The translations under genes and the position numbers were made by a program. A stretch of DNA of 25,717 nt from Promethearchaeota archaeon (GTDB lineage: Archaea > Asgardarchaeota > Hermodarchaeia > Hermodarchaeales > Hermodarchaeaceae), in assembly GCA_048938295.1 (NCBI GenBank), contig JBHLMI010000031.1:1-25717 (forward strand). Reading direction: 5' to 3'. The notes beneath the pieces were generated by a model. That model saw nothing but the letters and a program-made list of their open reading frames with translations. It was not told the DNA's origin and did no database searches. Every line of letters begins with the position of its first letter. The first letter of the stretch is position 1. Positions 4,006 to 20,756 of this stretch are shown in pieces.

Positions 4006-4186
4006 ATCCGCACCGCCATCGTTCTCCTCGTAACACACCCCTTTAAACCAAGAGAGGGTGCCAGATAAGTAAAGGAGAGTATTAAGAGGCTACCCTGTTT
4101 CCGAGGCATATAAACTCGACGAATTGGCAGCGGTGTGAAAAGATTACTCCTGTTCTTCTTGTCACCTTCACCAAGTACTTGATGAA

Positions 4187-4540
4187 TCATACTGTAGCGA
4201 CATCCACCCGCCATTCCCCCTCTAAATCCTCATCCTTAATGATAGTGATTGGTGCTGGCATTCCGCTTTTTTTGCCTTCTGAATTAATCCGCTGGAAAAA
4301 GAATTTCCATCGATTCTCATCGAGCTGGGTATCCTTTTCAGGGACATGATGATAGGTATAGCCAAATTTTTCTTGCATCTTCTGACTAGCTCGCCAATAC
4401 AGGTCTGGTGATGATCCATAACGATCTGCATTATCTTGGTGGTATTTTCGAAATGTTAAGAGCCATTTTGACTTGTCTTTTTCAACTAAGTATTTGTAAA
4501 AGAGCTTAGCTACTTCCAAAGGTAGAATCCCTTTCTTCAA
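4187..4540 (-). CDS. Hypothetical protein (117 aa, aromatic/Lys-rich)
   Basis: TTG start preceded by AAGAGGTG ribosome-binding site. Occupies an otherwise empty region. No family recognised. Confidence 0.6.
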   Translation of the reverse strand: MKKGILPLEVAKLFYKYLVEKDKSKWLLTFRKYHQDNADRYGSSPDLYWRASQKMQEKFGYTYHHVPEKDTQLDENRWKFFFQRINSEGKKSGMPAPITIIKDEDLEGEWRVDVATV

Positions 4541-4738
4541 TTGTTAACACCTCTTAGGCATTTTTCTTCTCTAACGCTATCTTCTCACAATCTTATTTGT
4601 CTGTGGATAGTGTTCGTGGTTTCTACATAATTATATTATTGATAATCCTTTTGCACTTTATCGAATGAGAGTGGGAGACCTCCGTTACAAATCCATAATA
4701 ATCAATCAAAATGTAATCTTCCCATTTTTTTTGTCTAA

Positions 4739-4752
4739 TTGGTAATTACCAA
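4739..4752. promoter_or_regulatory. Perfect 14-bp palindrome TTGGTAATTACCAA, candidate operator
   Basis: Directly visible, in the divergent intergenic region 58 nt upstream of the APC permease ATG at 4811. Confidence 0.4.
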
Positions 4753-4810
4753 AGTAGGTTTCAGACCCACGGCTAGGCTTTTCTATCCCTTAATATCATA
4801 TTATCAGACT

Positions 4811-6190
4811 ATGCCTGAATTAAAGCGAACGGTTGGTCTTTTTGGAGCGAGTTCTGTAGGCATCGCAAATATCATCGGCGCAGGAATTTTTGTTATTAGC
4901 GGTGTTGCAGCGGGACTTGCGGGGCCATCGGTTATCCTTTCATTTTTTTTGGCTGGAATTATTGCCCTCTTGACGGCACTATCATCGGCAGAACTGGCCT
5001 CAATAATAACGGAGACAGGTGCATCCTATGTGTTTACTAAAAGAGCTTTTGGGCGTATTCCAAGCTTTTTTGTTGGCTGGTTCAAATATTTCGATTATAT
5101 GGCTGGTGCTGCAGCGGTATCCATTGGGTTTGCGGCCTATTTCACAGCACTTTTTGGATTAGTTGGTCCCTTGCCCTTGATTCTAGCCGCCGTCGGGTTA
5201 CCGATCATTTTTACAATTCTAAATATAATTGGTGTCAAGGAAAGTGCTAATGCCACCTCAATTATGGTCTTCATCAAGCTTATTGCTTTAGTCCTATTAA
5301 TTGGGGCAGGTGGGATCTACCTATTTCATTTCTTTGATATAGCGCATTTTACCCCATTTTTTCCAACAGGTTTAGGGGGTACAATAAGTGGAGCTGCAGT
5401 TATCTTCTTTGCCTTTCTTGGTTTTAACACCATTGCAATGATGTCTGAAGAAACCAAAAACCCCGAAAAGACGATTCCTCGTGCATTGATTCTCGCGTTT
5501 ATAATAACCTTTGTTCTTTACATGGCAATTGCGGTCTTGGAGATTGGCATATTGAATTGGCAAAATTTGGGAACGAGCGCATCCCCACTTGAAGATTTAG
5601 CCCGGGCAATTTCAGCTAATCCCTTATTTACGAGTTTCATTGCGTTTACTGCATTGATTGCTACCGCCTCTGTTGTCTTGAGTTCCATTATGGGTGGAAC
5701 GCGTGCAAGTTTCGCCATGGGGCGGGATAGGCTCCTTCCCCAACAATTTGATAGAGTAAGCAGCCGCTTTAGTACTCCCTATCTGTCTGTGCTATTTGGA
5801 GGCATTCTTGTTGCAACTCTTGCCGGATTATTCTTCAATAACATTGATATCATTGCGTCAATCGTGAATTTTGGAAGTCTGTTTACCTATCTATTCGTTC
5901 ATGCCTCATTAATAAAATTAAGACGCGATGCACCAGAAATACAACGCCCTTTCAAAGTTCCCCTTTATCCCATCACACCAATCTTAGGCATATTTAGTTG
6001 TATTCTGTTAATGTTCTTTCTAAGTCTCAATGCCATGATTATGGCCGCTGTTTGGTGTCTCATTGGGATTTGCGTATTGGTGGTGATGTTCCGCAAATAC
6101 CCCCAAAGCTCATTGCATGACTCCGATGTGAAATCGGTCCATCAGTTTGATGACTCCGATTTTGAAAAAGTTCCCGACCACAAAGAATAG
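4811..6190 (+). CDS. APC-superfamily amino acid permease (CAT/ApcT-like)
   Basis: About 12 TM segments; TM1 NIIGAGIF, TM6 FFAFLGFNTIA, AEL and RPFKVPLYP motifs. Start placed at ATG 4811 (MPELKRTVGLF). The 3' end overlaps the H+-ATPase gene by 81 nt. Confidence 0.9.
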   Translation: MPELKRTVGLFGASSVGIANIIGAGIFVISGVAAGLAGPSVILSFFLAGIIALLTALSSAELASIITETGASYVFTKRAFGRIPSFFVGWFKYFDYMAGAAAVSIGFAAYFTALFGLVGPLPLILAAVGLPIIFTILNIIGVKESANATSIMVFIKLIALVLLIGAGGIYLFHFFDIAHFTPFFPTGLGGTISGAAVIFFAFLGFNTIAMMSEETKNPEKTIPRALILAFIITFVLYMAIAVLEIGILNWQNLGTSASPLEDLARAISANPLFTSFIAFTALIATASVVLSSIMGGTRASFAMGRDRLLPQQFDRVSSRFSTPYLSVLFGGILVATLAGLFFNNIDIIASIVNFGSLFTYLFVHASLIKLRRDAPEIQRPFKVPLYPITPILGIFSCILLMFFLSLNAMIMAAVWCLIGICVLVVMFRKYPQSSLHDSDVKSVHQFDDSDFEKVPDHKE

Positions 6191-8566
6191 GAGCGCATAT
6201 CCCCAGATAAAAGCTGCAAGCCCCCAGCCAATAGCAGGCATAAGAATACCAAAAACAGCCATGATGGTCGCTAGCAACTGTGTGAGTTCTGCTGTTAGGA
6301 AAAGACGAAGGGCAGGAAATGGCCGGTGCCAAAAAGAATGCGATCGAGTTCGAGTTAAATAAATAGTCATATGACCCGCAACGGCAAGCTTGAGAAAGAT
6401 TAGTGCTTGAAGTGTTAGGAGATCGAGGTGAAACACAACCAAGCCAAGGTAGAGAACACCAAAGCTGGCCAAGACACCCAGGACACCAAGGCTGGTGGCA
6501 AGGATTAGGATTCTAGCCGAGTCCCAGCGAACGGGTTTTCCTGGGGGTACAGCGTTATCAAAGGCAATCATCATTATGGGCAAATCATTGAGGAGGGCAA
6601 GAACGACGATCATAATTGCGTTAATTGGGTAAAAATTGAAGAGAAGGATAGAAAATGTAAGAAAGAACAACACCCGCACCGTCTCAGCAATGCGATAAGT
6701 CGAATAGCTATTCATGCGTTCAAAGATTTGCCGACTCTGCTTAATAGCATCAATAATCGCACAAAGTCCCGGTTTTGTAAGAACGAGATCCGCCGCCGAT
6801 TTGGCTGCATCTGTGGCACCAGCCACCGCAATACCGGTATCTGCTTTTTTCAGCGCCGGTGCATCGTTGACGCCATCTCCTGTCATTCCCACAATATGAT
6901 TTTTCTGTTGCAGGAGTTTCACGATATCATATTTATGTTCAGGAAAAACCTGTGCGAACCCATCAGCTTTTTCCACAAAATCCTGAACTTCACTATCGGA
7001 TTTTGCTAAAAACTCTGATGCCAGCAAAATGTTTGTGCCTAACTTAATTTGTTGAGCAATCTGTTTAGCAATGGCTATATGATCGCCTGTCACCATCTTA
7101 ACATCTAAACCCATGGTTTGAGCCGTTTTTATTGTATCTGCGGAATCGTCACGAGGAGGATCATAAAGAGCGATTAATCCTACAAACTGCCAAGCTCCTT
7201 TTGAATCCGTCTTAGTCACACCTAAAGCTCGAAACCCTTTTTGTGCAAAAGCATTAACCTGATCATCGAGATCCTTCGATAACGTCTTTTTATCCGCTAT
7301 TAAGCCAAGAATAACTTGGGGTGCACCCTTGGAAACCTTGAACTGATCTTTACCCGCTTCTATAATGGTGGCTTCTGTACGTTTTGAAACTGGGTCAAAT
7401 GGCTTAAAGGTTAGGGTTTCAAATGACGAATATTGGCCATTATCTGCTTGTTCTGCCTTATTTTTAACAATGATTGCGGTATCAATCGGGTCTTTATCTT
7501 CTTCCCGGGATGCAAGAGCTGCCAGTCTGATGACATCTTGGCTTGTAAAGTTCTTTTGTGGGGTAACATCCGCAACAACGATTTCATTTTTTGTTATCGT
7601 ACCTGTTTTATCTGAGCATAAGACATCCACACCGGCCATTTCCTGAATGGTACGAAGTTTTGACACAATGATGCCATGTTGAGTCAAATTGAGTGCACCA
7701 ACCGCCAAAGTCACAGAAAGAACCGCTGGCAAGGCAACAGGAATGGCAGCTATTAACAGCACTAACGAAAATTGCAATGTCTCTAGAATTGATTCATGGC
7801 GAAGAAAGGATGCAACAAAGATTATAGCTACCAGAGCGACAGCGAGTACGATTAGATAATTTCCAATTTTTATTACGCTCTCTTGGAAGTGACTGCGGGT
7901 TTTCGCTTCCTCTACAAGTTGTGCAGTTTTGCCAAAGTACGTCTGCATCCCGGTAGTGATGACGAGTCCATTCATTTCACCTCGTCGAACAATGGATCCT
8001 GAATAGGCTACATCTTCCAGCTTTTTTTCAACAGGAAGCGACTCACCGGTTAAGGTTGATTCATCTGTCTGTAGATAATCGCCTTCTATAAGTTTCAAAT
8101 CAGCTGGAATCATATCACCAAGTCGAATCCGAACGATATCTCCTGGTACCAGTTCCCGCGCTGTAACCTCGATCCATTTTCCATTTCTTAATACTCGGGC
8201 CTGGGTGGCTAATTTTTGTTTTAACAGCTCAATGGTGTCATCTGCCTTCTTCTCTTGCCAGAACCCAACAACGGCATTAATCATTAACATGACAAGGATG
8301 ACTGCAAAATCTTCCCAATGTTGTATGACAGCTGATAAGATTGCAGCCGCTTCAATCATCCAAGGTATAGGTCCCCAGAAATAGCTAAGAAATTTAAGAA
8401 AGGGATTTTTCTTCTTCTCTACTATCTCATTTGGGCCAAACACTTGTCTGCGCTTAGAAGCTTCGTCAGAAGACAGGCCTTTCGAACTTGTTGACAGAGT
8501 TTTCATTATATCCTTTGTCGATTTTATTTTCGCTTCGTCCGTTGTGATTCTTTTTGGTTCTGCCAA
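6110..8566 (-). CDS. Plasma-membrane proton-efflux P-type ATPase (type IIIA)
   Basis: TGES, DKTGT phosphorylation motif, KGAP, TGD and GDGVNDAP. TM4 IPVALPAV and TM6 LLND are characteristic of P3A pumps. GPIPWMIE motif. TTG start with GAGGGAG ribosome-binding site. Confidence 0.92.
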   Translation of the reverse strand: MAEPKRITTDEAKIKSTKDIMKTLSTSSKGLSSDEASKRRQVFGPNEIVEKKKNPFLKFLSYFWGPIPWMIEAAAILSAVIQHWEDFAVILVMLMINAVVGFWQEKKADDTIELLKQKLATQARVLRNGKWIEVTARELVPGDIVRIRLGDMIPADLKLIEGDYLQTDESTLTGESLPVEKKLEDVAYSGSIVRRGEMNGLVITTGMQTYFGKTAQLVEEAKTRSHFQESVIKIGNYLIVLAVALVAIIFVASFLRHESILETLQFSLVLLIAAIPVALPAVLSVTLAVGALNLTQHGIIVSKLRTIQEMAGVDVLCSDKTGTITKNEIVVADVTPQKNFTSQDVIRLAALASREEDKDPIDTAIIVKNKAEQADNGQYSSFETLTFKPFDPVSKRTEATIIEAGKDQFKVSKGAPQVILGLIADKKTLSKDLDDQVNAFAQKGFRALGVTKTDSKGAWQFVGLIALYDPPRDDSADTIKTAQTMGLDVKMVTGDHIAIAKQIAQQIKLGTNILLASEFLAKSDSEVQDFVEKADGFAQVFPEHKYDIVKLLQQKNHIVGMTGDGVNDAPALKKADTGIAVAGATDAAKSAADLVLTKPGLCAIIDAIKQSRQIFERMNSYSTYRIAETVRVLFFLTFSILLFNFYPINAIMIVVLALLNDLPIMMIAFDNAVPPGKPVRWDSARILILATSLGVLGVLASFGVLYLGLVVFHLDLLTLQALIFLKLAVAGHMTIYLTRTRSHSFWHRPFPALRLFLTAELTQLLATIMAVFGILMPAIGWGLAAFIWGYALLFFVVGNFFKIGVIKLMDRFHIGVMQ
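6117..6167. repeat. Imperfect direct repeat with 33-nt period inside the convergent gene overlap
   Basis: ATGACTCCGATGTGAAA (6117-6133) and ATGACTCCGATTTTGAAA (6150-6167). In frame in both genes: FKIGVI...FHIGVM in the ATPase and HDSDVK...DDSDFE in the permease. Confidence 0.65.
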
Positions 8567-8601
8567 CTAAGCTCCCTCTACAGAAGTTGTGCTGCTCTGA
8601 T

Positions 8602-9546
8602 TTAGTCTGGATAAATTATTGTTCCTTCTTTTCCATGTAAGCTTATTTCAACATTTTCGATGGAAGTAATGATGGCCTGTTTACCGCCCGCTTCGATGAA
8701 ATCGATAGTGGCTTCGATTTTGGGTTGCATGCTTCCTGGTGCGAAGTGACCCTGAGCAAGATATCGTTTGGCATCTGATACTGGTATCTTGCTGAGGGCA
8801 GTTTGGTCTGGGCGACCATAATGTAGGTAGGCTCTTGGAACATCAGTAAGAATGACTAAAGTTTCTGCCTTGATAAGTGTGGCTAAAAGAGCTGCGGCAT
8901 GGTCTTTATCAATTACCCCTTCTACTCCCTCAATCTGTCCATCTTTTTTGCGGATAATCGGTACTCCACCTCCTCCTGAGGCAATCACAATGACTCCTTG
9001 ATCATATAGATATTTGATGGAAGGACCTTCGATGATTTCGTGGGGAATGGGCGAGGGGACCACTCGGCGAAAACCGCGCCCACTGTCATTGATTATGGTC
9101 CATCCTTTCTCTTTGCGAAGCTGCGAAGCCTCTAATGCCGTATAAAACGGACCAATTGGTTTGCTAGGCTTCTCAAATGCGGAATCTTCTTTATCCACTA
9201 CAGTTTGAGTGAGTATCGTTACTACAGGCTTTTTGATTGCAGCAAGAGCTAATTCGGTGGTTAGACTTTGTTGAAGCATATACCCGATCATTCCTTGACT
9301 TTCAGCGTTGCAGATATCAAGGGGCATTTGTGGAAGTGATGATTTTGCGAGTTCATTCTTCAAGAGGATATCGCCGACTTGGGGACCATTGCCGTGGGTA
9401 ATCGCTATATGGTAGCCTTTTTGAATTAACTTGACTAAGTGCTTTGCAGTTTCACGGACATTTCTAATTTGTTCTTCCGCTGTTCCTTTGTCTTTGTGTT
9501 TAAGGATTGCATTTCCACCTAAGGCGACTAAGATGTTTTTATTCAT
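8602..9546 (-). CDS. arcC: Carbamate kinase
   Basis: ALGGNA, THGNGPQVG, KPIGPFY, GFRRVVPSP, GVEGVIDKD and GSMQPK motifs. AGGAG ribosome-binding site. Confidence 0.97.
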   Translation of the reverse strand: MNKNILVALGGNAILKHKDKGTAEEQIRNVRETAKHLVKLIQKGYHIAITHGNGPQVGDILLKNELAKSSLPQMPLDICNAESQGMIGYMLQQSLTTELALAAIKKPVVTILTQTVVDKEDSAFEKPSKPIGPFYTALEASQLRKEKGWTIINDSGRGFRRVVPSPIPHEIIEGPSIKYLYDQGVIVIASGGGGVPIIRKKDGQIEGVEGVIDKDHAAALLATLIKAETLVILTDVPRAYLHYGRPDQTALSKIPVSDAKRYLAQGHFAPGSMQPKIEATIDFIEAGGKQAIITSIENVEISLHGKEGTIIYPD

Positions 9547-9570
9547 AAAGTGACTCTCCTGGTCTATTGA

Positions 9571-10449
9571 TTAATATCGTCTGATTCCAGTGACCACACA
9601 TATTTTCACCCCGTTATAATTACGAGAAATATGCATGGCTAACATATCGACAGGATCATAGTTTGGATAGCGAAGGCATAGTTCTAACACAGCATCAAGT
9701 TCTGTTGTTGTGTCAATCTTTGTATAGGGTAGATCTCGAAATTCTCTTTTGATATCCTTTCCCTCAGGCCCATGCGTATAAATGGAGTCAAAGGGTCTCT
9801 GATACTTCTCATCAATATCTTCCCATTTCAAGGGACTTAATGGATGATTGGGCAAAACACACGCAATAACAATCGGTGCTTTGCTAATAAGTTCCTTATC
9901 GACTAGTTCTTGAAACCCATAGGCTGTAGCATAGGAGAGGTTCATGTTCGCCGCTGGGATAAAGACATAATCGGGACGCCACTCCATTAACTCATATGCA
10001 ATTGGAACATCGCCTTTCCAACGTTCCAGTTCTCCTGGTGACGCATCAATTATGTCCCTATCTTCTGAAATCTGCTCTCCATGCTTGTATGTCTCAAAGT
10101 AATATTTCCCGGTAGCTTGGACTTTGGCCCCAAATTGCTTAATGGTATTAAGTTTAGTATCTGTTCGTCCCTCAGGAACAAGGATGAGGGCATGATCCCT
10201 CATCCAATATGCTCCTGATATACCGGCATTACCTTCAGAGACAATAAGATATTGTTTGTCACGACCGTATTTGTTAATGACCCAATAGGTTTCGCGATCT
10301 TTATGGCTTCCAGAAGGATTGGTATATTCTAATTTTAGGAAACATTCCAAGTACTCATCGTAGATTACGGGTGTATAGCCCACTTGAGGGTCAATGGGTT
10401 TTTGTTTGTCTTGTGAGGTTCTCATTTTAGCTTTTCCTTCTGTAAGCAT
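9571..10449 (-). CDS. Fold-type II PLP-dependent enzyme, divergent and shortened threonine-synthase-like protein of unknown reaction
   Basis: GYTP, KLEYTNPSGSHKDR (Schiff-base Lys), SEGNA, GAKV, IAYEL...PDYVFIP and terminal VVTG. ATG directly abuts the ADI stop codon (TAAATG). Confidence 0.8.
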   Translation of the reverse strand: MLTEGKAKMRTSQDKQKPIDPQVGYTPVIYDEYLECFLKLEYTNPSGSHKDRETYWVINKYGRDKQYLIVSEGNAGISGAYWMRDHALILVPEGRTDTKLNTIKQFGAKVQATGKYYFETYKHGEQISEDRDIIDASPGELERWKGDVPIAYELMEWRPDYVFIPAANMNLSYATAYGFQELVDKELISKAPIVIACVLPNHPLSPLKWEDIDEKYQRPFDSIYTHGPEGKDIKREFRDLPYTKIDTTTELDAVLELCLRYPNYDPVDMLAMHISRNYNGVKICVVTGIRRY

Positions 10450-11757
10450 TTATCCGCGTCGAAGTGCACAAGTCATACAATGGGCTCCGCCGTATCCTCC
10501 TGTGAGATTGGGTAGTACAATTGGATAGATGTCTATTCCATGCTGGTAGATTCCTCTTTTATGGGGAAAGAACTCGCTTTGATTCTTTAAAGTCTTATAG
10601 TCTTTTTCAGCTTGGGCAAGTAATTTTTCATAGCGTTGTGGCTCGGATTTAGCCTTGGTCTGTAGGTTTTCAAGGACTGCCTTCACATCGCGTTCAACTT
10701 CTATTGCGAGGATTGTTCCATCCCGGATGCAAAGGAAATTGGAAGCGTATGCAAGTTGTTCGAGCGTCGTTATACTGATTAAATCCAAGCCTTTGTCCTT
10801 GACATAGTCGTGAAGGTTTGTGGTTGTTTTTTCTTTTTCATATTCCCCTGGTCCTTTTCGATGATATATTTCCACGATTGCCTGTCTTAAGAGTAAGTCA
10901 AGACCAATTACGACGCTGCTTGAAGCTACATTGAAGTAAGTGTCCAAGTGCATGTCAACCATTGGATCTGGTTTCTTGCTTGGGATGAGAGGATGATTAG
11001 GTTGGTGTACAACGCCCACCTCATCAAAATTGAGGCCATATCTGAGCATTTGTTCTACTCCTGCTTGGTTTGAGCGATCTCCAAGCCCTACTAACGCGAA
11101 ATCTTTCATAGGGATAAAATCGCCTCCCTCAAAGGTTCCTGGTGCTTGAGTTTCATGGACTACATTAGCAGCTATTATCTCCCATAGGAAACGAGTAATC
11201 TTTGGCTCTGACCGTCGCTGGGGTTTACTCATGCGGGAGAGAAAAATCCCTTTATCTGTAACTGCTTGTTGATCTCGCATGAAATAGAGATTAGAGAGGG
11301 GTTGTCTTTCTGTGATGTTCAGGTGGATCGCTCTGGTTCCTTTCCCCGTTTTTAATTGTATCAACGGATTTAACAAGAGGGTTTTAAAGAAGTGGTCAAC
11401 GTCTAAGAGTGGTTCGTTCTTGTTCAATTCGTTACGAGCTAGCGCTATATCGGATTCTGAACCTTTGATATCGATGGTCGCGTGAGCTAAGTCAACGAGT
11501 TGTTGTCTGATAGTCGGATTCACATCAGCTGCATTTAATATGATGTCTTTCATTTTTAGAACATTCACATTAAGTTCGTGACGAAGAATATATTCGAGTT
11601 GTTTGTGTTCTTCTCGTGCTCCATATCGGCTGAAAGCCCGTTCATAAAGTGATGCAAAGGGTTCGAGAAGTCCGAAGAACATCTCAATACCTGGTTGATG
11701 AATCACAACCGTTTTGAGCGAATCCCATTCTGCACGAATTTTTGTTTCCATTATCAT
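10450..11757 (-). CDS. arcA: Arginine deiminase
   Basis: AEW, NLYFMRDQ, FEGGD, MHLDTY and C-terminal GYGGAHCMTCALRR with the nucleophile Cys. ATGA overlap with OTC and a GAGGTG ribosome-binding site; the real start may be the second Met at 11751. Confidence 0.95.
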   Translation of the reverse strand: MIMETKIRAEWDSLKTVVIHQPGIEMFFGLLEPFASLYERAFSRYGAREEHKQLEYILRHELNVNVLKMKDIILNAADVNPTIRQQLVDLAHATIDIKGSESDIALARNELNKNEPLLDVDHFFKTLLLNPLIQLKTGKGTRAIHLNITERQPLSNLYFMRDQQAVTDKGIFLSRMSKPQRRSEPKITRFLWEIIAANVVHETQAPGTFEGGDFIPMKDFALVGLGDRSNQAGVEQMLRYGLNFDEVGVVHQPNHPLIPSKKPDPMVDMHLDTYFNVASSSVVIGLDLLLRQAIVEIYHRKGPGEYEKEKTTTNLHDYVKDKGLDLISITTLEQLAYASNFLCIRDGTILAIEVERDVKAVLENLQTKAKSEPQRYEKLLAQAEKDYKTLKNQSEFFPHKRGIYQHGIDIYPIVLPNLTGGYGGAHCMTCALRRG

Positions 11758-12695
11758 CCACCTCTAGATTCTTTGTGACCTAACATTAGATCTAAAATTC
11801 CGATAGCCCCATAGAGCTTGTTTTCGCCTTGTTGCCACACTATTGATTGGCTACCTTCAATGACATTGTCAGTGATTTCAAGCCCACGATGGGCAGGTAA
11901 GCAGTGCATCACAAGGGCATCTTTTGCTGCCACTTTTAGGAGAGCATCATTGATTTGATAGCCCTGGAAGGCTTTCAATCGCTTTTGTCGTTCTTTATCT
12001 TCACCCATGCTAACCCAGACGTCAGTGTATAAGATATCGGCGTTTTTTGCTGCTTCCTTTGGGTTTTCCACAATTGCGATTTTTGAGCCAGTGTTGAGGC
12101 TAAGTTGCTTTGCCTGTTGAAGAATTTCGTCTTTAGGGTAGTACCCCTTTGGACATGCAGCAACCATGTTCATGCCCATCATTGCTGCGCCAAGCATCAG
12201 CGAATGGCACATGTTGTTTCCATCGCCAATGAAGGCTAATGTGAGCCCCTTGAGATGACCTTTTGCTTCTTTAATAGTAAAGAAATCACAGACTATTTGT
12301 GTTGGGTGTTCAAGGTCGCTGAGTCCATTGATAACAGGTATGTTAGCGTATTGTGAGAGCTGCACAACCGTGTCATGTGCATAAACACGAGCTATGATTG
12401 CGTCTAGATACCCACCAAGAATGCGTGCTGTATCCTTTATGGGTTCTCCACGGCTTAGTTGAAGTTCACTTGAGGGTAGATAAACGGCTTGACCACCGAG
12501 TCGAAGGGTAGCTACTTCAAAACTGGTGCGAGTGCGGGTGGAGGGTTTTTCAAAAAGTAAACCCACCACTCGATCGCTAAGAGTAGTTACCGATTTTTGC
12601 TGTTTTACTTGAGATTTCAGTTTACTAGCTCGCTCAAATAGGGTGTCAAAGTCCTGTTGGGTTAGATCAGTGATCGATAGGAATGCTGATTTCAT
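11754..12695 (-). CDS. arcB: Ornithine carbamoyltransferase (catabolic role inferred from operon context)
   Basis: FEKPSTRTR, HPTQ, DVWVSMG and MHCLPAHRG motifs. AAGGTG ribosome-binding site. Confidence 0.95.
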   Translation of the reverse strand: MKSAFLSITDLTQQDFDTLFERASKLKSQVKQQKSVTTLSDRVVGLLFEKPSTRTRTSFEVATLRLGGQAVYLPSSELQLSRGEPIKDTARILGGYLDAIIARVYAHDTVVQLSQYANIPVINGLSDLEHPTQIVCDFFTIKEAKGHLKGLTLAFIGDGNNMCHSLMLGAAMMGMNMVAACPKGYYPKDEILQQAKQLSLNTGSKIAIVENPKEAAKNADILYTDVWVSMGEDKERQKRLKAFQGYQINDALLKVAAKDALVMHCLPAHRGLEITDNVIEGSQSIVWQQGENKLYGAIGILDLMLGHKESRGG

Positions 12696-12714
12696 TTACC
12701 GCACCTTATTGTGA

Positions 12715-14307
12715 TTAGTCCGTAGCAGTGTATTTTGAGTTCTCCCAGTACGCCCATGCAAAGATGATTATGCTAAACACGGTCAGGACAATCATGTCGA
12801 AGGGCATCGGAATAATCCCCAAGGGACTAATGAATCCTGGGAAGTTTTGATAGACGAAATTAGTGTCGCCGATCAGAGACATCACCATGATGCCTAAGAT
12901 ATAGACGAAAATCCAAAGGTTTCGTTTGATTTCGAAGTCATGGCGTCTTAGTGTAAGATACAATGGATACCCAATAAGCATCAGGATTCCGCCAACTAGG
13001 GTCCATGGCCAAGAAGCCCAATAGACCAGGAGCGTGGCAAAGATGAATCCAAGTCCAGTGATAATGACTGGAATCGGCAGTTTAAATGGTCGTTTTACGT
13101 CTGGTTTAGTTTTTCGAAGGATTGGAACGGCAAGAGCTGCTGCGGCATAGGGTACAAGCGCTGTTATTGAGGCAATCAATGCTACAGATGGAAAGTTCGG
13201 TATGAAAATCTGAATTATCATTGTGAGAATCGTTGCGAAGATTAGAGCGATGTATGGGGTTCCAAATCGAGGATGGACTTTCTCCATTGGTCCCCAGAAG
13301 AGCTTATCGTGTGCCATGGCGAAGGGAATACGTCCTTGAAGAAGGACCCAGTCGCCTCCGGCACCTGCAGTGCTAATCACAGCTCCAATGACAGCGACGA
13401 TAGCTAGAATTGGTAAGCCAGCTGCCAATGCAACATTTGCTAGTGGGGAGCTAAGATTTCCAATACTCCCCCAATCGCCTACCGTTAAGCCTAGTCCGGT
13501 CCAGTTGATTAATCCTGTAAATGCAATGCCTAACAGAATGTATGTTACGATTACAATACCTATGGTTATTAGCATTGCTCGGGGAATGGTTTTGCTGGGA
13601 TTCTTGATTTCTTCTGTGGGAACAACTACTGATTCAAAACCAGTAAATGCCCAGAATTCAAAAGCCATCGCTAATGTGATGCCGGTTAAGCCAAAGGGCA
13701 GTAACGGAAAGAAATTCGTCCAGTTAAGAACTGCCAAACCGACGCAGATGAAAGCAATCAATGGGACTAGTTTTCCGATAGTGGTAAATACACTATACCA
13801 GCCGCCCCATTTTACCCCCACTAAGTTGATGATTGTAAAGATCCACAAAGCAATGACAGCAATTGCAATTCCTAGTGGTGTCAATGTCTGTCCTACAGCT
13901 AAGGCGGGGAAGAAGAAGCTGAGGTAGGTAATGAAGATGTCGATGATTGCCGCGGTGCCCACAAACGCGTAAAGGAAGTACCCCCAACCCATAATAAACC
14001 CGCCTAAGTTACCCAAGGCTAATCTGGGAAGTGAGTAGGGTCCTCCAGTTTTGGGAAACGCTGATCCAAGCTCTGCATAGGAAATAGCTAGCAGAGTAGT
14101 CACCAGTCCAGTTAAAAGGATTGCAATGATGAGAGCAGGCCCAGCAACTGAGCCCATTACAGCAGGCATAGCAAAGACGCCTGAACCGATAATACTACCA
14201 ACACCAAGGGCTACAAGCATCCAGAGACCAAGCTCTCGTTTCAACCCTTTTTTATCCGATTCTCCCTCCATTGATGAGGAAGAAGTTGATTTTGATTCAT
14301 TCGTCAT
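12715..14307 (-). CDS. APC-family transporter, probable arginine/ornithine antiporter (ArcD/AdiC-like)
   Basis: First gene of the ADI operon. TM1 IIGSGVF, TM6 FWAFTGFES and TM8 GGDWVLL retain the GSG, Trp and Glu positions of AdiC-type arginine antiporters. About 14 hydrophobic segments. Confidence 0.85.
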   Translation of the reverse strand: MTNESKSTSSSSMEGESDKKGLKRELGLWMLVALGVGSIIGSGVFAMPAVMGSVAGPALIIAILLTGLVTTLLAISYAELGSAFPKTGGPYSLPRLALGNLGGFIMGWGYFLYAFVGTAAIIDIFITYLSFFFPALAVGQTLTPLGIAIAVIALWIFTIINLVGVKWGGWYSVFTTIGKLVPLIAFICVGLAVLNWTNFFPLLPFGLTGITLAMAFEFWAFTGFESVVVPTEEIKNPSKTIPRAMLITIGIVIVTYILLGIAFTGLINWTGLGLTVGDWGSIGNLSSPLANVALAAGLPILAIVAVIGAVISTAGAGGDWVLLQGRIPFAMAHDKLFWGPMEKVHPRFGTPYIALIFATILTMIIQIFIPNFPSVALIASITALVPYAAAALAVPILRKTKPDVKRPFKLPIPVIITGLGFIFATLLVYWASWPWTLVGGILMLIGYPLYLTLRRHDFEIKRNLWIFVYILGIMVMSLIGDTNFVYQNFPGFISPLGIIPMPFDMIVLTVFSIIIFAWAYWENSKYTATD

Positions 14308-14311
14308 AAAG

Positions 14312-14318
14312 ACCTCCT
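14312..14318 (-). promoter_or_regulatory. Shine-Dalgarno sequence of the first arc operon gene
   Basis: AGGAGGT 4 nt upstream of ATG 14307. Confidence 0.8.
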
Positions 14319-14346
14319 AAACAGAAAGGAGTCACCACGAAGTAAG

Positions 14347-14374
14347 CTCAAGGTATAATGTATAATTACTTGAG
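14347..14374. promoter_or_regulatory. Inverted repeat enclosing the probable arc operon TATA box
   Basis: CTCAAG-N16-CTTGAG. The spacer holds a tandem GTATAAT GTATAAT, which reads TTATAC twice on the minus strand. Confidence 0.5.
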
Positions 14375-14391
14375 TTGAACAAAATGCTAGC

Positions 14392-14406
14392 CTTTATAGC
14401 TTAAAG
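14392..14406. promoter_or_regulatory. 5-5-5 inverted repeat overlapping the probable lrp TATA box
   Basis: CTTTA-TAGCT-TAAAG, containing TTTATAG, 31 nt upstream of the Lrp/AsnC start. Confidence 0.45.
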
Positions 14407-14437
14407 AAGACAAAATGGGGCAGAGTGTGCAACAAAA

Positions 14438-14884
14438 TTGCCAGTAGACGAGCTAGATCGTTACATAATTAATTGCTTATGCCAGGGCGTTTTTTCATAC
14501 TCGGATTTAGCTGAGATTTGCAGCACAACACGCAGTACAATCTATCGTAGAGTAAAACGCCTTGAGGACCTTGGAATCCTTGACAAGAAAGTGATGGGAA
14601 TAGTGAATTTCCAAAAACTCAATCTTTCGGGTATCTGTATTGGGATTGATGTGAAACAGGGCGAAACAGACGAAGCATTAAAGATTTTGAGTGGCCATGA
14701 ACCCGTTAAAATGCTTTTGAAATCCTATGGCACATATCACATTTTTGCGATGCTTTTCTGCGAAAAGGGTCGTGAAGGGGAAACCATTTCCAAACTCCGT
14801 GATGTATTACAGAAATTCCATTTGCATAAATTTGATGTAAGTATTGGATTTGAATGGTTGAAAATAAACCTCACACCATTCTAA
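14438..14884 (+). CDS. Lrp/AsnC family transcriptional regulator
   Basis: N-terminal HTH VDELDRYII...SYSDLAE...STIYRRVKRLEDLGIL followed by a RAM-like domain (SYGTYHIFAML). Divergent from the arc operon. Confidence 0.88.
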   Translation: MPVDELDRYIINCLCQGVFSYSDLAEICSTTRSTIYRRVKRLEDLGILDKKVMGIVNFQKLNLSGICIGIDVKQGETDEALKILSGHEPVKMLLKSYGTYHIFAMLFCEKGREGETISKLRDVLQKFHLHKFDVSIGFEWLKINLTPF

Positions 14885-14986
14885 GATTAACATCAAATTC
14901 TATTAGAGCCATAATTCACCACTATATAAGTGACAGAAAATATTGCATCGAATATAATGACTCTTGTTTTTTACGAAAGTCGGTTA

Positions 14987-15009
14987 AATCAAACCAAGAA
15001 TGTTTGATT
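14987..15009. terminator. AT-rich hairpin between convergent lrp and mch
   Basis: AATCAAAC-CAAGAAT-GTTTGATT (8-bp perfect stem), with a T-tract at 14963-14972. Confidence 0.35.
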
Positions 15010-15040
15010 CCTACGTTTATGCTAAATGTCTGTAATAGAT

Positions 15041-16018
15041 TTACTTTAGAGTCGTTGCTAAGGCCTTTAGGAATAGTTGCGGATCCAGGTGCCCTGCCGT
15101 ATGGTAGCGTCCTGTTCGTAAATCATTGACTGTAATGTGGGCAGGTGCAAAGAGCATCTTATCGATGTTGTAAAAGTCGCCTTCGGCATCCTTGAAGATT
15201 TGATGGAAGGGTTTACCATAATCTGATGACGTCGAGGAGGGAACTTGCTCGATGAGGTCGGCTAAGCCATCATCCTCTGTGGAGTGGATGAAAAGGAAGG
15301 TCTCTCCCATCATCAGTATGGCATCATTAGTGATGCCCATTGCTCGCATGTCTTTTCGGGCAACTGGGACGATGGGACATACCCCGATGCCGCTAAGCAC
15401 CTTTCGAAAGTCATATCCCAAGATTTTGAGTTTATGAATCCCGGTTTCCACAATTCGAGCCGCAATTTGCACGGAACCGGCAATGCATGCTGTCGGGGCG
15501 ACGAGGAGATAGAGGTCCTTTTCATCGATGTTACATGCCTCGGCTACGTATTCACACACAGCAGGATTGGGGAGGGTCCGGGTTTCTAGCATAAGCACCG
15601 CTTCGTTGTGCTCGTCTTCGTAATCGAGTGTATCAAACAGCTTGCCTTCAACTCGTGACTGGGCTCGGGCAGGGCCAGAGCCTAAAGCGAAGAATCCTTC
15701 GACCTTGACGTTCCAACCAGCTGCTTGGGATCCAATACAGGCGAGAGCAGCATGATCGCTGGTAATACGTGCTGTGGGAAACGTAGATCCTCCAACGAGG
15801 GTCGTTTCTAGGCCAACGGTCCCCAATCCACCCATGCACACTTCAGCAAGTAGGCGACCGGCTTCAAGGCTGCCTGGGACATCAATGCCGCAGTCAATGA
15901 TTGTGGTTTTGCCTTTGGTTTTGTGCACTTTAACTCGAAGCACATCACTTTCTGCGATAAGACGCTTCACTAGGGGCATAGCACGCTTGTTGATGCTAGG
16001 TTGAGTTTTAGCCGCCAT
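15041..16018 (-). CDS. mch: Methenyltetrahydromethanopterin cyclohydrolase
   Basis: IDCGI, GSGPARA, GSVQIAARIVETGIHK, PSSTSSDYGKPF and DFYNIDKMLFAPA motifs. Overlaps the fwdC stop by 11 nt. Confidence 0.95.
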   Translation of the reverse strand: MAAKTQPSINKRAMPLVKRLIAESDVLRVKVHKTKGKTTIIDCGIDVPGSLEAGRLLAEVCMGGLGTVGLETTLVGGSTFPTARITSDHAALACIGSQAAGWNVKVEGFFALGSGPARAQSRVEGKLFDTLDYEDEHNEAVLMLETRTLPNPAVCEYVAEACNIDEKDLYLLVAPTACIAGSVQIAARIVETGIHKLKILGYDFRKVLSGIGVCPIVPVARKDMRAMGITNDAILMMGETFLFIHSTEDDGLADLIEQVPSSTSSDYGKPFHQIFKDAEGDFYNIDKMLFAPAHITVNDLRTGRYHTAGHLDPQLFLKALATTLK

Positions 16019-16907
16019 TATTTCCGACCTTCAGAACATGGCTATTGGTTGCCTTGAAAAGAAGCAGCTCCCCACGCCCTCCTGAACCGAAATCACCCGT
16101 AAACCGAAGATAAGGGCCGACTCGTTCTTTCTCTGTGAAGGTCACCCCTGGAATTTCGGCTTCAATGGCATCCATAAGGAGGCGAAGAAAGATCATATCA
16201 GAATATTCTCCATTAAACAAATGTGTAGGCATTGGTGGTCGCGCCTTGCCCAACGCAATTATGGTTCCCTTATACCCCATTGCAGCTCCAGCACGATCGC
16301 CAAGTTCGCCACGAACAATAATCGTTCCTGCCAGCATACGAGTGCCAGCATAGGATGCGGTGTCACCATCGATTACGATGATCCCGCGTCGCATTCCCAT
16401 TCCGAGTTCATGGCCGACATTTCCTTTGACGTAAAGGTTTCCGCCATTCATTCCATATTTACTGCCCAGATAGGATGAGGCCGCCTTGTCACCAACGTTG
16501 CCCGTTACGCGGATTGTGCCTCCGGACATTTCAGCGCCAAGCCAATGATCTACATTCCCTTTGACCTCAATAGTTCCACCTTTCATCCGGGCGCCCAAAT
16601 GCATCCCTGTATTACCTTTGATGAGAATCGTTCCTGCAGTCATGTCCTGACCAAGATGGCGAACCTGAGGAATTGCCCCTACAACCTCAATTACTGTGTT
16701 TTTAGCCGCCTTGTCTGTTTTTCCAGTTACATCGAAGAATTTACCAAGGGTCGTTCGCCGGTTTCCATGCCAGATAGCGATTTTCTTGATTTTGTCAAGT
16801 GTTTTCCCAGCTACGGTATCCGGTGAAACTAATTTCAAGTCAAAAGGGATCCTATCTGTAGGGTCAATAGATGGTGTGAGCACAAGCTTCGATGCAGGCA
16901 TCTTCAT
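16008..16907 (-). CDS. fwdC: Formylmethanofuran dehydrogenase subunit C (GXGXG beta-helix)
   Basis: N-terminal SPDTVAGKT...IWHGN...LGKFFDVTG, repeated GxxMxGGxIxVxG units and C-terminal RFTGDFGSGGRGEL. Start placed at ATG 16907 after GGAG. Confidence 0.88.
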   Translation of the reverse strand: MKMPASKLVLTPSIDPTDRIPFDLKLVSPDTVAGKTLDKIKKIAIWHGNRRTTLGKFFDVTGKTDKAAKNTVIEVVGAIPQVRHLGQDMTAGTILIKGNTGMHLGARMKGGTIEVKGNVDHWLGAEMSGGTIRVTGNVGDKAASSYLGSKYGMNGGNLYVKGNVGHELGMGMRRGIIVIDGDTASYAGTRMLAGTIIVRGELGDRAGAAMGYKGTIIALGKARPPMPTHLFNGEYSDMIFLRLLMDAIEAEIPGVTFTEKERVGPYLRFTGDFGSGGRGELLLFKATNSHVLKVGNNGG

Positions 16908-16952
16908 AATCGCTCCATTCATAATGCACGAGGGTTTGTGGGGATTCGTAAA

Positions 16953-17000
16953 TTATGGAACTACCATAAACGGATTTAGGGTATTTATCATTACCCATAA
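16953..17000. promoter_or_regulatory. Paired inverted repeats upstream of fwdC-mch
   Basis: TTATGG-AACTA-CCATAA (16953-16969) and GGGTA-N8-TACCC (16979-16996). The CCATAA half-site recurs 31 nt apart. Confidence 0.4.
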
Positions 17001-17040
17001 ATAATCAACGATGAAACAAGAATTCGAAACGGTGTAAACA

Positions 17041-17387
17041 ATGATGAAAAAGGTGTAAAGCTACATCGATGCAGTGACGAACGAAAGAAAACGACTTTTT
17101 TGAAAAACTCCAATCATTGATCCTTAGACTATATCCAACTGTTGACATCTGCCTTTCTTACAAGATACCAACCTACAAAATCGAGTCAGGATGGGTCGCA
17201 TTAGGCCTTTGGAAAGATGGTGTCTCAATATACACCAATAACCCCCATCATATAGCGCCATTCAAATCTACCTTCCACAAGATCAAGACAGGCAAAGCCA
17301 GTATCAATTTGAAAGTAAATGATGGTTGATGAAGCCGCTCTAGAACAGGTCATCAATAGGGCAATAGAAAACTGGACAGAATCCTAA
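17041..17387 (+). pseudogene. DUF1801 (YdhG-like) family pseudogene
   Basis: Reassembled reading: MMKKV*SYIDAVTNERKRLF / EKLQSLILRLYPTVDICLSYKIPTYKIESGWVALGLWKDGVSIY...KIKTGKASINLKVND / VDEAALEQVINRAIENWTES. In-frame TAA at 17056-17058, +1 shift in the T6 run at 17096-17101, and a second +1 shift near 17324. GGTG ribosome-binding site before ATG 17041. Confidence 0.8.
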
Positions 17388-17495
17388 CCATGGCCTTTCT
17401 GATAACTGATTTTTAGACAACTAAAATAAATTTCGGGTGTAGGTAAGGTTATTAGGAGTCATCACGACACTGTACGACTATTCGGGGTTTAACCA

Positions 17496-18392
17496 ATGGA
17501 ACTGAACGGAGTAGAAGTCGAAGATACCTTCGCAGAAGCCTTCGACATGCAAGTTGCCCGTATTCTAATGACTGCTGCAACTGAAAACTGGGCAAGGACA
17601 TGCGCCTATTCTGCAGCTGGATTTGCCACATCAGTCATCGAATGCAAAGTTGAAGCAGGAATCGACCAGATAATCCCAAAGACTGAGACACCAGATAAAC
17701 GGCCAGGCATTACACTACTCTTCGCCGCTTTGAAATCAAAGGATTTGGCTAAAGAGCTACGGAAGCGAACCGGCCAATGCATTCTCACCTGCCCTACTAC
17801 GAACGTATACAATGCATTGGATACTGCAGAGGAATGGGTTGATGTTGGGAATCAACTCCGCTATTTCGGTGACGGATTCGAAGATCGAAAACGTGTAGGA
17901 GACAAATTACTCGCCTGGCGAATACCTGTCATCGAAGGCGAATTCGTTATTGAAGAGAAATTTGGAATTAAAGCTGGCGTTGGTGGTGGAAATCTGATTC
18001 TAATGGGCAAAACCCCTAGGGCGACGCTAAAAGCCGCTGAAGCCGCCGTTCAGGCCGTACACACAGTTGATGGGTGTGTGACACCATTTCCTGGCGGTAT
18101 TTGTCGCAGTGGAAGCCAAGTAGGCTCCAAATATGATTTCTTGAAAGCTTCCACCAATGTGCGCCTTTGTCCCACGCTGCGAGAACATATCCCCAATAGC
18201 CTTGTTCCTCCTGATGTCAACAGTGTACTTGAAATCGTTCTGAATGGTCTCAGTAAAAATGCTGTGCAAGATGGTATGGGTGCAGCGTTAAGGGCTGCTG
18301 TTAAAGTTCCTGATCTTGTGAAGGTTTCTGCTGTGAATTTTGAAGGGAAACTCGGAAAACACAAACTCCATCTGAAGAGTCTCCTTGACTAA
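17496..18392 (+). CDS. ftr: Formylmethanofuran--tetrahydromethanopterin N-formyltransferase
   Basis: MELNGVEVEDTFAEAF, GFATSVI, TPDKRPG, GQCILTCPTT, LRYFGDGF and GGICRSGSQVGSKY...ASTN...CPTLR motifs. Confidence 0.97.
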   Translation: MELNGVEVEDTFAEAFDMQVARILMTAATENWARTCAYSAAGFATSVIECKVEAGIDQIIPKTETPDKRPGITLLFAALKSKDLAKELRKRTGQCILTCPTTNVYNALDTAEEWVDVGNQLRYFGDGFEDRKRVGDKLLAWRIPVIEGEFVIEEKFGIKAGVGGGNLILMGKTPRATLKAAEAAVQAVHTVDGCVTPFPGGICRSGSQVGSKYDFLKASTNVRLCPTLREHIPNSLVPPDVNSVLEIVLNGLSKNAVQDGMGAALRAAVKVPDLVKVSAVNFEGKLGKHKLHLKSLLD

Positions 18393-20246: not shown

Positions 20247-20284
20247 CTACCTCGTAATAAAATACCTCTTCAGGGTGAATGCGC

Positions 20285-20740
20285 ATGAGTGAAAAGCCAC
20301 TAGACACAGTATTAGACGATCTGGCCAAACTGTATATCCTCTTAGTACTCAATGAAGGCCCAACTCATGGATACGGCATAATTCGGAAGTACAATACACG
20401 ATCTGGCCGCTCGCTTAGCGCTGGAACCCTCTATCCCTTCTTACAAAAACTAGAGCAACAGGGTCTGGTCACATCTGAGGATAAGTCAGTGGGTAAACGC
20501 CCTCGACGTGAATATTGTCTTACTCGAAAGGGGCGGAGTTCAGTGAGCCAGCTATTGGATCGATTCGCATCACTTACTGCTGCAGTCTTTGAGTCAAATC
20601 TGCAGGTATGTGCTAGTTGCGGCTGTAAAGTCTATGAAGGGGCGCATCTCGAAGAGATAAACGGCAAGCAAATGGCATTTTGCTGTCAACACTGTGCGGC
20701 TGCATACCAAATTCAGCTCCAAAACCAAACAGACAGTTAA
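20285..20740 (+). CDS. PadR-family regulator with C-terminal TRASH (Cys-rich metal-binding) domain
   Basis: PadR wHTH (GPTHGYGII...SAGTLYPFLQKLE..GLV...RREYCLT..G) followed by CASCG...FCCQHC. GGGTGA ribosome-binding site favours ATG 20285. Confidence 0.88.
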   Translation: MSEKPLDTVLDDLAKLYILLVLNEGPTHGYGIIRKYNTRSGRSLSAGTLYPFLQKLEQQGLVTSEDKSVGKRPRREYCLTRKGRSSVSQLLDRFASLTAAVFESNLQVCASCGCKVYEGAHLEEINGKQMAFCCQHCAAAYQIQLQNQTDS

Positions 20741-20756
20741 CCAAAGGTGAGTAACA

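Follow-up and report, generated by a model that had tools for sequence, protein, structure and literature searches.

Recurrent pairing of an arginine deiminase gene cassette with a putative P3A-type proton pump in an Asgard archaeon and other archaea

Introduction

The arginine deiminase (ADI) pathway turns arginine into ornithine, two NH3, CO2 and ATP. In bacteria it is encoded by arc operons, such as arcDABC of Pseudomonas aeruginosa and arcABCD of lactic acid bacteria (PMC5300872), which resemble the genes described here in combining the same three enzymes with an exchanger, all co-oriented and with a regulator nearby, and in yielding 1 ATP, 2 NH3 and CO2 per arginine. For streptococci and other bacteria under acid stress, PMC6942593 describes a coupling of this pathway to the F1Fo H+-ATPase, in which the ATP made by carbamate kinase is used for proton extrusion while ammonia neutralises the cytoplasm, and this is also the mechanism we propose here. 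Our subject is a 25.7-kb stretch of DNA, hereafter the window, which is an entire contig (C49) of a 2.5-Mb metagenome-assembled genome (MAG) with 91.6% completeness and whose host is an Asgard archaeon. In it an arc cassette is directly followed by the gene of a P3A-type P-type ATPase, and we find genes of the same kinds side by side, in different orders, in about eight independent lineages.

The plasma-membrane proton pumps of plants and fungi have their closest relatives in the prokaryotic P3A ATPases; the eukaryotic pumps move 1 H+ per ATP. The transport function of the prokaryotic members "remains to be determined", no member having a demonstrated ion (PMC10654040). An initial annotation of this DNA, made from the sequence, had proposed that the locus is a self-contained module in which ATP from arginine is spent directly on proton export, independently of the A-type ATPase. 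Here we report how that proposal stands after comparison with other genomes.

Results

The arc cassette and the pump

Six co-oriented genes occupy the minus strand, and a regulator gene is divergent from them. In the order of reading these are:

14438-14884, plus strand: Lrp/AsnC-type regulator, divergent from the arc genes and within the variable island described below; weak matches to PF13404 and NF040820
12715-14307, minus strand: APC-superfamily transporter, 530 aa, putative arginine/ornithine exchanger (arcD analogue); PF13520, 180 bits
11754-12695, minus strand: ornithine carbamoyltransferase (OTC), catabolic copy (arcB); TIGR00658, 413 bits against a cut-off of 281
10450-11757, minus strand: arginine deiminase (arcA) of the archaeal/chlamydial type; PF02274, 160 bits against a cut-off of 22.8
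9571-10449, minus strand: fold-type II pyridoxal phosphate (PLP) enzyme between arcA and arcC; PF00291, 75 bits
8602-9546, minus strand: carbamate kinase (CK, arcC), the ATP-forming step; TIGR00746, 412 bits against a cut-off of 358
6110-8566, minus strand: P3A-type P-type ATPase, putative H+ pump, 818 aa, TTG start; TIGR01647, 1024 bits against a cut-off of 615.5

By open reading frame coordinates the successive gaps between the six genes are 19, -4, 0, 24 and 35 nt, exactly the gene order, spacing and divergent Lrp/AsnC gene that had been read from the sequence initially. Logan contigs from two runs, each of 6.8 kb, cover 8392-15210 with 0 differences, and a 709-nt Logan contig from a third run covers 8109-8817, so that the three runs combined bridge both the arcC/ATPase and the Lrp/mch junctions. 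Because independent Logan contigs bridge every junction, the gene adjacency is not an assembly artefact.

OTC, CK and the P3A ATPase score above the cut-offs of their families. The ADI carries all the catalytic motifs (FMRD, FEGGD, H-x-D and HCMT, invariant in alignment A1) and is a clear Pfam ADI, yet scores under the cut-off of the bacterial arcA equivalog (TIGR01078, 88 bits against 489), and it therefore represents a divergent subfamily, with 55-70% identity to ADIs from many phyla. The transporter is assigned to the APC superfamily only, since it falls below the cut-offs of both TIGR03810 (119 bits against 591) and TIGR00905 (189 against 409). Related arc clusters from many phyla nevertheless begin with this gene, which is conserved in them (55-76% identity), and from this gene context we regard it as a putative arginine/ornithine exchanger. 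The cassette OTC falls under the cut-off of the putrescine carbamoyltransferase profile. The genome encodes a second OTC (C57:21073-21984) and a second CK (C8:4985-5911), each about 49% identical to the island copy, and a catabolic role of the cassette fits with its OTC and CK being extra copies. Many relatives of the ADI were recorded under titles that mention peat, bog or fen, a hint at acid habitats.

Recurrence across lineages

Pumps from the clade of the window ATPase are found no more than 2 kb from arc genes in three Asgard families, in Thermoplasmatales, Theionarchaea and Nitrososphaerales, and on two other contigs. Four gene arrangements were seen: pump first, pump last, pump after the ADI without a CK between them, and pump convergent with the arc genes. 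Among 400 Asgard genomes this ADI type was found in 11 and the pump clade in 62. The pump is present in 10 of the 11 ADI-bearing genomes and in 52 of the 389 others, counts for which we give no P value since the genomes are kin. Where both genes are present they are adjacent in 8 of 10 Asgard genomes. The initial annotation would have counted against itself a lack of the ATPase beside arc genes in all related genomes, and this is not what the genomes show.

In one genus of Thorarchaeia (g82), the pump ortholog of five genomes (57-59% identity) immediately precedes the arc genes, upstream and in the same orientation. Three of the five read ATPase>APC>OTC>ADI, with CK following in the one whose contig extends far enough, and two have ATPase>ADI alone. 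Some of these loci are eroding or reduced: G352 (L045) is without a CK after the ADI, and G365 (L046/L057) and G363 (L047/L058) retain only ATPase>ADI. The transporter gene of G369 (L051) matches in two pieces, possibly owing to a frameshift. Elsewhere among the Asgard genomes, ATPase>ADI lies on a single contig in G360, and in G049 (Asgard LC30) an ADI-CK pair is found 2 kb from a convergent pump.

When one genome per GTDB species was scanned with an ADI profile, 80 loci came back. In 8 of them, whose ADIs all rank with the closest, the pump stands beside arc genes. Four of these 8 are Asgard contigs named above (LC30 and three Thorarchaeia). The order is APC>OTC>ADI>CK>ATPase in a MAG of Thermoplasmatales, OTC>ADI>CK>ATPase in one of Theionarchaea and APC>OTC>ADI>ATPase in one of Nitrososphaerales from peat, and in a MAG labelled Pseudomonadota the ATPase is convergent with the arc genes. 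Within 10 kb of the remaining 72 loci, which come from Methanobacterium, Methanomicrobiales, Chlamydiae and others, no pump is present. A further contig from peat (L134) has the order APC>OTC>ADI>CK>ATPase. The neighbourhood search that had been suggested for the P3A ATPase with arcA and arcC thus gave adjacency in about eight independent lineages and in different gene orders.

In the ATPase tree, 11 of the 12 arc-linked pumps fall, together with those of the relic-bearing congeners described below, into one 32-member subclade, while the Thermoplasmatales pump lies elsewhere. In the ADI tree, 10 linked ADIs belong to one 27-member clade in which they are interleaved with unlinked ADIs. The trees fit an old linkage that would have spread by horizontal transfer, been kept through at least four rearrangements and been lost repeatedly, and that was perhaps re-formed once.

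History of the island within the genus

The region of about 4700-14900 is a variable island, in which the Lrp gene, the arc genes, the pump and a second permease have been gained or lost as a unit. The permease lies at the far end:

4739-6190, plus strand: second APC-family permease; PF13520, 195 bits; convergent with the ATPase gene, with an 81-nt overlap

At least six congeners have the order fwdC-like > mch > ATPase < permease and are without arc genes, the permease, itself part of the variable island, having been retained with the pump; a search for ADI in 14 congeners and 4 genomes of the same family found none. The mch > ATPase order in the congeners had raised the possibility that the arc genes were inserted beside a resident ATPase, and this was rejected because relics of the arcC 3' end and of Lrp remain at the junctions. 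In G011, window positions 14823-14711 (113 nt of the 3' part of Lrp, at 88% identity) abut 8670-8508, which comprises the last 68 nt of arcC and the ATPase start; the junction is a clean 6.0-kb deletion. Remnants of arcC in other congeners are shorter: G002 keeps about the last 55 nt, G013, G004, G003 and G012 keep the following block, and G005 has none.

8614-8640, minus strand: block at the arcC 3' end, TTACATGGAAAAGAAGGAACAATAATT; found as an arcC relic upstream of the ATPase in arc-less congeners (blastn, alignment A3)

Since arcC and Lrp relics remain at the junctions, the arc genes were deleted in the arc-less congeners, and the adjacency of arc genes and pump is, judged from these relics, ancestral within the genus. 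A second lineage that has kept it is represented by a metagenomic contig (L214, 88% nucleotide identity), in which ADI-PLP-CK-ATPase is retained with the same 24- and 35-nt spacers and no indels. The ratio of non-synonymous to synonymous substitution rates (dN/dS) between L214 and the window is 0.10-0.14, which indicates purifying selection. At least one deletion of the arc part has taken place, and there were probably more, because the junctions differ and because L214 groups with arc-less species, although the short tree gives that grouping only moderate support (93% SH-aLRT).

Five further congeners have nothing of the island, neither the ATPase nor the convergent permease nor arc genes. 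There the order is mch > g4187 > Na+/H+ exchanger gene(s) > Nre, and four of the five have two exchanger genes in tandem. The exchanger (PF00999) is found for example at L218:3393-6317 (G006) and also in L216, L217 and L219, the equivalent place in the window being 4038-4187; in the window's own genome, at its 91.6% completeness, no homologue was found at E<=1e-10. Mutual exclusion of exchanger and pump island at this locus was considered and rejected, as G004 has both. For genes of ion and pH homeostasis, this place in the genome is a hot spot.

In run X1 the summed contig depth is 35-69 over the ATPase gene (6110-8566) compared with 33.9 over the arc genes, and in runs X1-X3 the ATPase gene is split into many variant contigs with loose ends. 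Both observations fit with sister strains or species that occur together and have the pump in common, though not the arc genes.

Signals, spacers and transcription

Three intervals could bear on how the genes are read, of which the first two are given here and the third is the block at 8614-8640:

14308-14437, no strand assigned: divergent intergenic region; TATA-like boxes rich in AT; AGGAGG as Shine-Dalgarno motif ahead of the transporter
8567-8601, minus strand: arcC-ATPase spacer of 35 nt; GAGGGAG Shine-Dalgarno motif, no T-run; a spacer of equal 35-nt length in L214

Shine-Dalgarno motifs precede five of the six genes, the exception being the PLP gene, and no run of five or more T was found in any of the intergenic gaps; on both counts (ribosome-binding motifs for five genes, and no visible terminator) the initial description was accurate. 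Co-orientation, short gaps and the absence of a terminator-like T-run thus extend from the transporter to the ATPase, as in a single operon, and we infer that these genes are co-transcribed. A look-up of sequencing runs containing this DNA listed none from RNA. The divergent region at 14308-14437 is a candidate for the main arc promoter. A scan for sigma-70 promoters and hairpin terminators was discarded, as its counts equalled those of shuffled sequences and the model is wrong for an archaeon.

The 27-nt block at 8614-8640 is conserved in 7 of 8 species while its flanks diverge (alignment A3). It lies about 45 nt upstream of the TTG start in the window, G011 and G002, and farther upstream where insertions intervene. 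On the strength of this conservation it is a candidate promoter of the pump's own, with B recognition element (BRE) and TATA box, inside the 3' end of arcC. The pump is probably transcribed both by read-through from the arc genes and from this promoter. That it also works alone follows from the deletion of the arc genes in congeners that retained the pump.

Properties of the pump

The P-type ATPase motifs DKTGT, TGES and GDGVNDAP are present and invariant in the compared pumps, and the TTG start is invariant in 8 species. The protein is without N- or C-terminal regulatory domains. Its closest solved structures are AHA2 (5ksd, E 2e-188) and Pma1 (4e-175). In a phmmer comparison with 5ksd, residues N97, R631 and D661 align with AHA2 Asn106 (transmembrane helix TM2), Arg655 (TM5) and Asp684 (TM6), and their equivalents are invariant across eight pumps of the clade, seven of which are arc-linked. 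From these features we take the transported ion to be probably H+.

We also considered whether the second permease could be a general partner of the pump, which a scheme of energisation for H+ symport would predict. This was not supported, as a permease lies within 3 kb at only 1 of 80 pump loci. Tandem copies of this P3A clade occur on single contigs, both in peat metagenomes (L154, L156, L164 and L166) and in the Asgard genomes G180, G185 and G292.

The PLP enzyme

The gene between arcA and arcC had been called a threonine-synthase-like enzyme and counted as part of the module. It scores below every cut-off of the threonine synthase profiles (best NF004996, 62 bits against 266). Its family, called "PLP-dependent lyase/thiolase" in some records, is widespread in archaea; the proteins have about 280 aa and share the lysine motif SGSHKDRE, which is invariant. 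The structure model (pLDDT 88) is nearest to threonine synthases, threonine/serine dehydratases and serine racemase, at a TM-score of about 0.74 and identities of at most 24%. When fold searches and the Atlas were consulted for a substrate, the former returned only the general fold-type II family and the latter only PALP, and the model supports assignment to the fold-type II PLP superfamily only. As a general component of the module the enzyme did not hold up: it was not found in any of the 80 other arc loci examined, and the archaeal relatives examined stand alone, with genes for serine hydroxymethyltransferase or arginyl-tRNA synthetase beside them, and never within arc clusters. The gene is a lineage-specific insert, which lineage L214 retains between arcA and arcC under purifying selection (dN/dS 0.10). 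As a guess, an ammonia-releasing deaminase would suit this context. On one contig labelled Verstraetearchaeota (L041:10001-12764) a homologue lies tail-to-tail with arginyl-tRNA synthetase, a weak and single hint of a link to arginine.

Flanking genes and host

Directly flanking the island, mch, a fwdC-like gene encoding a GXGXG protein and ftr cluster at 15041-18392; these are genes of the tetrahydromethanopterin (H4MPT)-dependent one-carbon or Wood-Ljungdahl pathway. With mch, ftr, the fwdC-like GXGXG protein and Nre among the neighbours, the host is an archaeon with an H4MPT-dependent one-carbon pathway. The genome also encodes an A-type ATPase. An unrelated copper-resistance pair lies at 20279-23219, where a PadR-TRASH regulator precedes a P1B ATPase of the CopA type that carries two HMA domains. 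Scanning the window for Rfam families and for tRNAs gave zero matches.

Discussion

Our interpretation is that the cassette and the pump form a module that is fuelled by arginine, serves to keep pH and energise the membrane, and is read from both the arc and the pump promoters, and we hold this to be probable though by a long way not certain. In such a module the APC exchanger would bring arginine in and ornithine out, the ADI would convert arginine to citrulline and NH3, and the catabolic OTC would turn citrulline and Pi into ornithine and carbamoyl phosphate, from which carbamate kinase, with ADP, would form ATP, CO2 and NH3. The two ammonia molecules released per arginine would take up cytoplasmic protons, and the pump would spend the ATP of the cassette on expelling protons, at 1 H+ per ATP. 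Ammonia and pump could then jointly defend cytoplasmic pH and build a membrane potential without another energy source, with the Lrp-type regulator probably controlling the cassette. The role in acid resistance or in generating a proton-motive force would be in line with what PMC6942593, citing Cusumano and Caparon 2015, states for bacteria under acid stress, namely that the H+-ATPase uses ATP of the ADI pathway to extrude protons.

Several observations weigh against so close a partnership. The pump was retained after arc loss in at least seven congeners, and 52 of the 62 pump-bearing Asgard genomes are without an ADI. In a survey from the pump side, of the 80 nearest homologues on JGI metagenome contigs, arc neighbours were found at 1 of 80 (L134). 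The linkage is thus one-way: it is general when seen from the arc side and not when seen from the pump side. Co-transcription is impossible in two lineages, where pump and arc genes converge, and elsewhere the gaps between CK and ATPase are 79, 237 and 660 nt, leaving room for separate promoters. Horizontal transfer connects the linked loci, and part of their recurrence is accordingly shared ancestry. Finally, for prokaryotic P3A ATPases a demonstrated transported ion is absent from the account in PMC10654040. What survives of the original proposal is therefore the recurrent link of arc genes and pump; the description as self-contained goes too far, given that the arc genes can be lost and the pump kept, that the pump has a candidate promoter of its own, that most pumps are arc-less and that an A-type ATPase is present.

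Another explanation is hitch-hiking alone. Cassette and pump would then be independent cargo of one transferred island, separately regulated and coupled solely via the ATP pool. That most of the linked loci fall into one subclade in each of the ADI and ATPase trees is compatible with a single ancestral linkage, and the persistence of the pump after arc loss, the conserved promoter-like block upstream of it, the convergent arrangements and the five congeners without the island as a whole all speak for it. However, neutral linkage should decay, and here adjacency survives at least four rearrangements over phylum-level distances and is found in 8 of the 10 Asgard genomes with both genes. Also, the Thermoplasmatales pump falls into another subclade of the ATPases, suggesting that recruitment happened a second time. 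We consider hitch-hiking alone unlikely, while granting it a real share of the probability.

At the other extreme the partnership might be closer than we propose. An archaeal clade of P3A pumps that is common in Asgard could be a dedicated outlet for fermentative ATP, with a single-subunit pump of eukaryotic type turning the ATP from arginine into membrane potential and pH control, with the arc cassette selected beside a pump because without one it would be useless or even harmful, through alkalinisation and ATP/ADP imbalance. We think this a doubtful extension. If it were true, energisation of the plasma membrane in the manner of fungi and plants would already exist in the archaeal relatives of eukaryotes.

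The pump might instead move another ion tied to arginine breakdown, exporting NH4+ or exchanging K+, and so clear ammonium rather than protons. Two ammonium ions per arginine must exit the cell, as is established biochemistry, and the statement in PMC10654040 that prokaryotic P3A transport "remains to be determined" leaves room for such an activity. Against it, the H+-handling residues of AHA2 (Asn106, Arg655 as built-in counter-ion, and Asp684) are all conserved and invariant in the arc-linked pumps, and the score to the H+-ATPase equivalog is far over its cut-off, which makes another ion quite improbable. The least credible of the alternatives is an anabolic or mixed cluster, in which OTC and CK would work towards arginine or pyrimidines and the pump would be unrelated. 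OTC and CK are indeed reversible, and the transporter is under every antiporter cut-off, but the ADI reaction is catabolic and cannot be reversed, other copies of OTC and CK exist in the genome, and APC>OTC>ADI>CK is a conserved catabolic cassette order in dozens of genomes.

The recurrent and rearrangement-resistant link to arc genes gives the prokaryotic P3A pumps a first physiological context that can be tested, in pH homeostasis or membrane energisation by fermentative ATP. It also shows arc cassettes moving between archaeal phyla in company with a pump, and the relics document how an island erodes while the pump persists. Sister species with and without the cassette, and a pump of 818 aa that has no regulatory domain, provide natural material for experiments. 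With Asgard archaea among the hosts, the finding is also relevant to the time at which cell membranes came to be energised by P-type pumps.

Compared with the bacterial arc operons, the window has an ADI of the divergent archaeal/chlamydial type, a transporter that is neither ArcD nor ArcE by hidden Markov model cut-off, and a regulator of the Lrp type where theirs is ArgR or Anr; it also embeds a PLP enzyme and a P3A ATPase, neither of which is known in canonical arc operons. The difference from the F1Fo coupling lies in the pump, which in those bacteria is rotary, multi-subunit and encoded elsewhere, whereas here it is a single-subunit P-type ATPase encoded beside arcC, and the link is evolutionarily recurrent. 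With AHA2 (5ksd), Pma1 (7vh5, 1mhs) and the P3A ATPase of Methanocaldococcus jannaschii (Morsomme 2002, cited in PMC10654040) the window pump shares TIGR01647, the ten-helix architecture and DKTGT, as well as the equivalents of Asn106, Arg655 and Asp684. Unlike AHA2 and Pma1 it is without regulatory domains and is encoded beside an ATP-generating pathway, and its H+ transport is putative. A full-text search of the literature for a cluster of arc genes with a P3A ATPase found no description, which does not prove that none exists. The recurrent pairing of arc genes with a P3A pump in archaea therefore appears to be new, while its parts, and the physiological coupling of the ADI pathway to an H+-ATPase, are already known.

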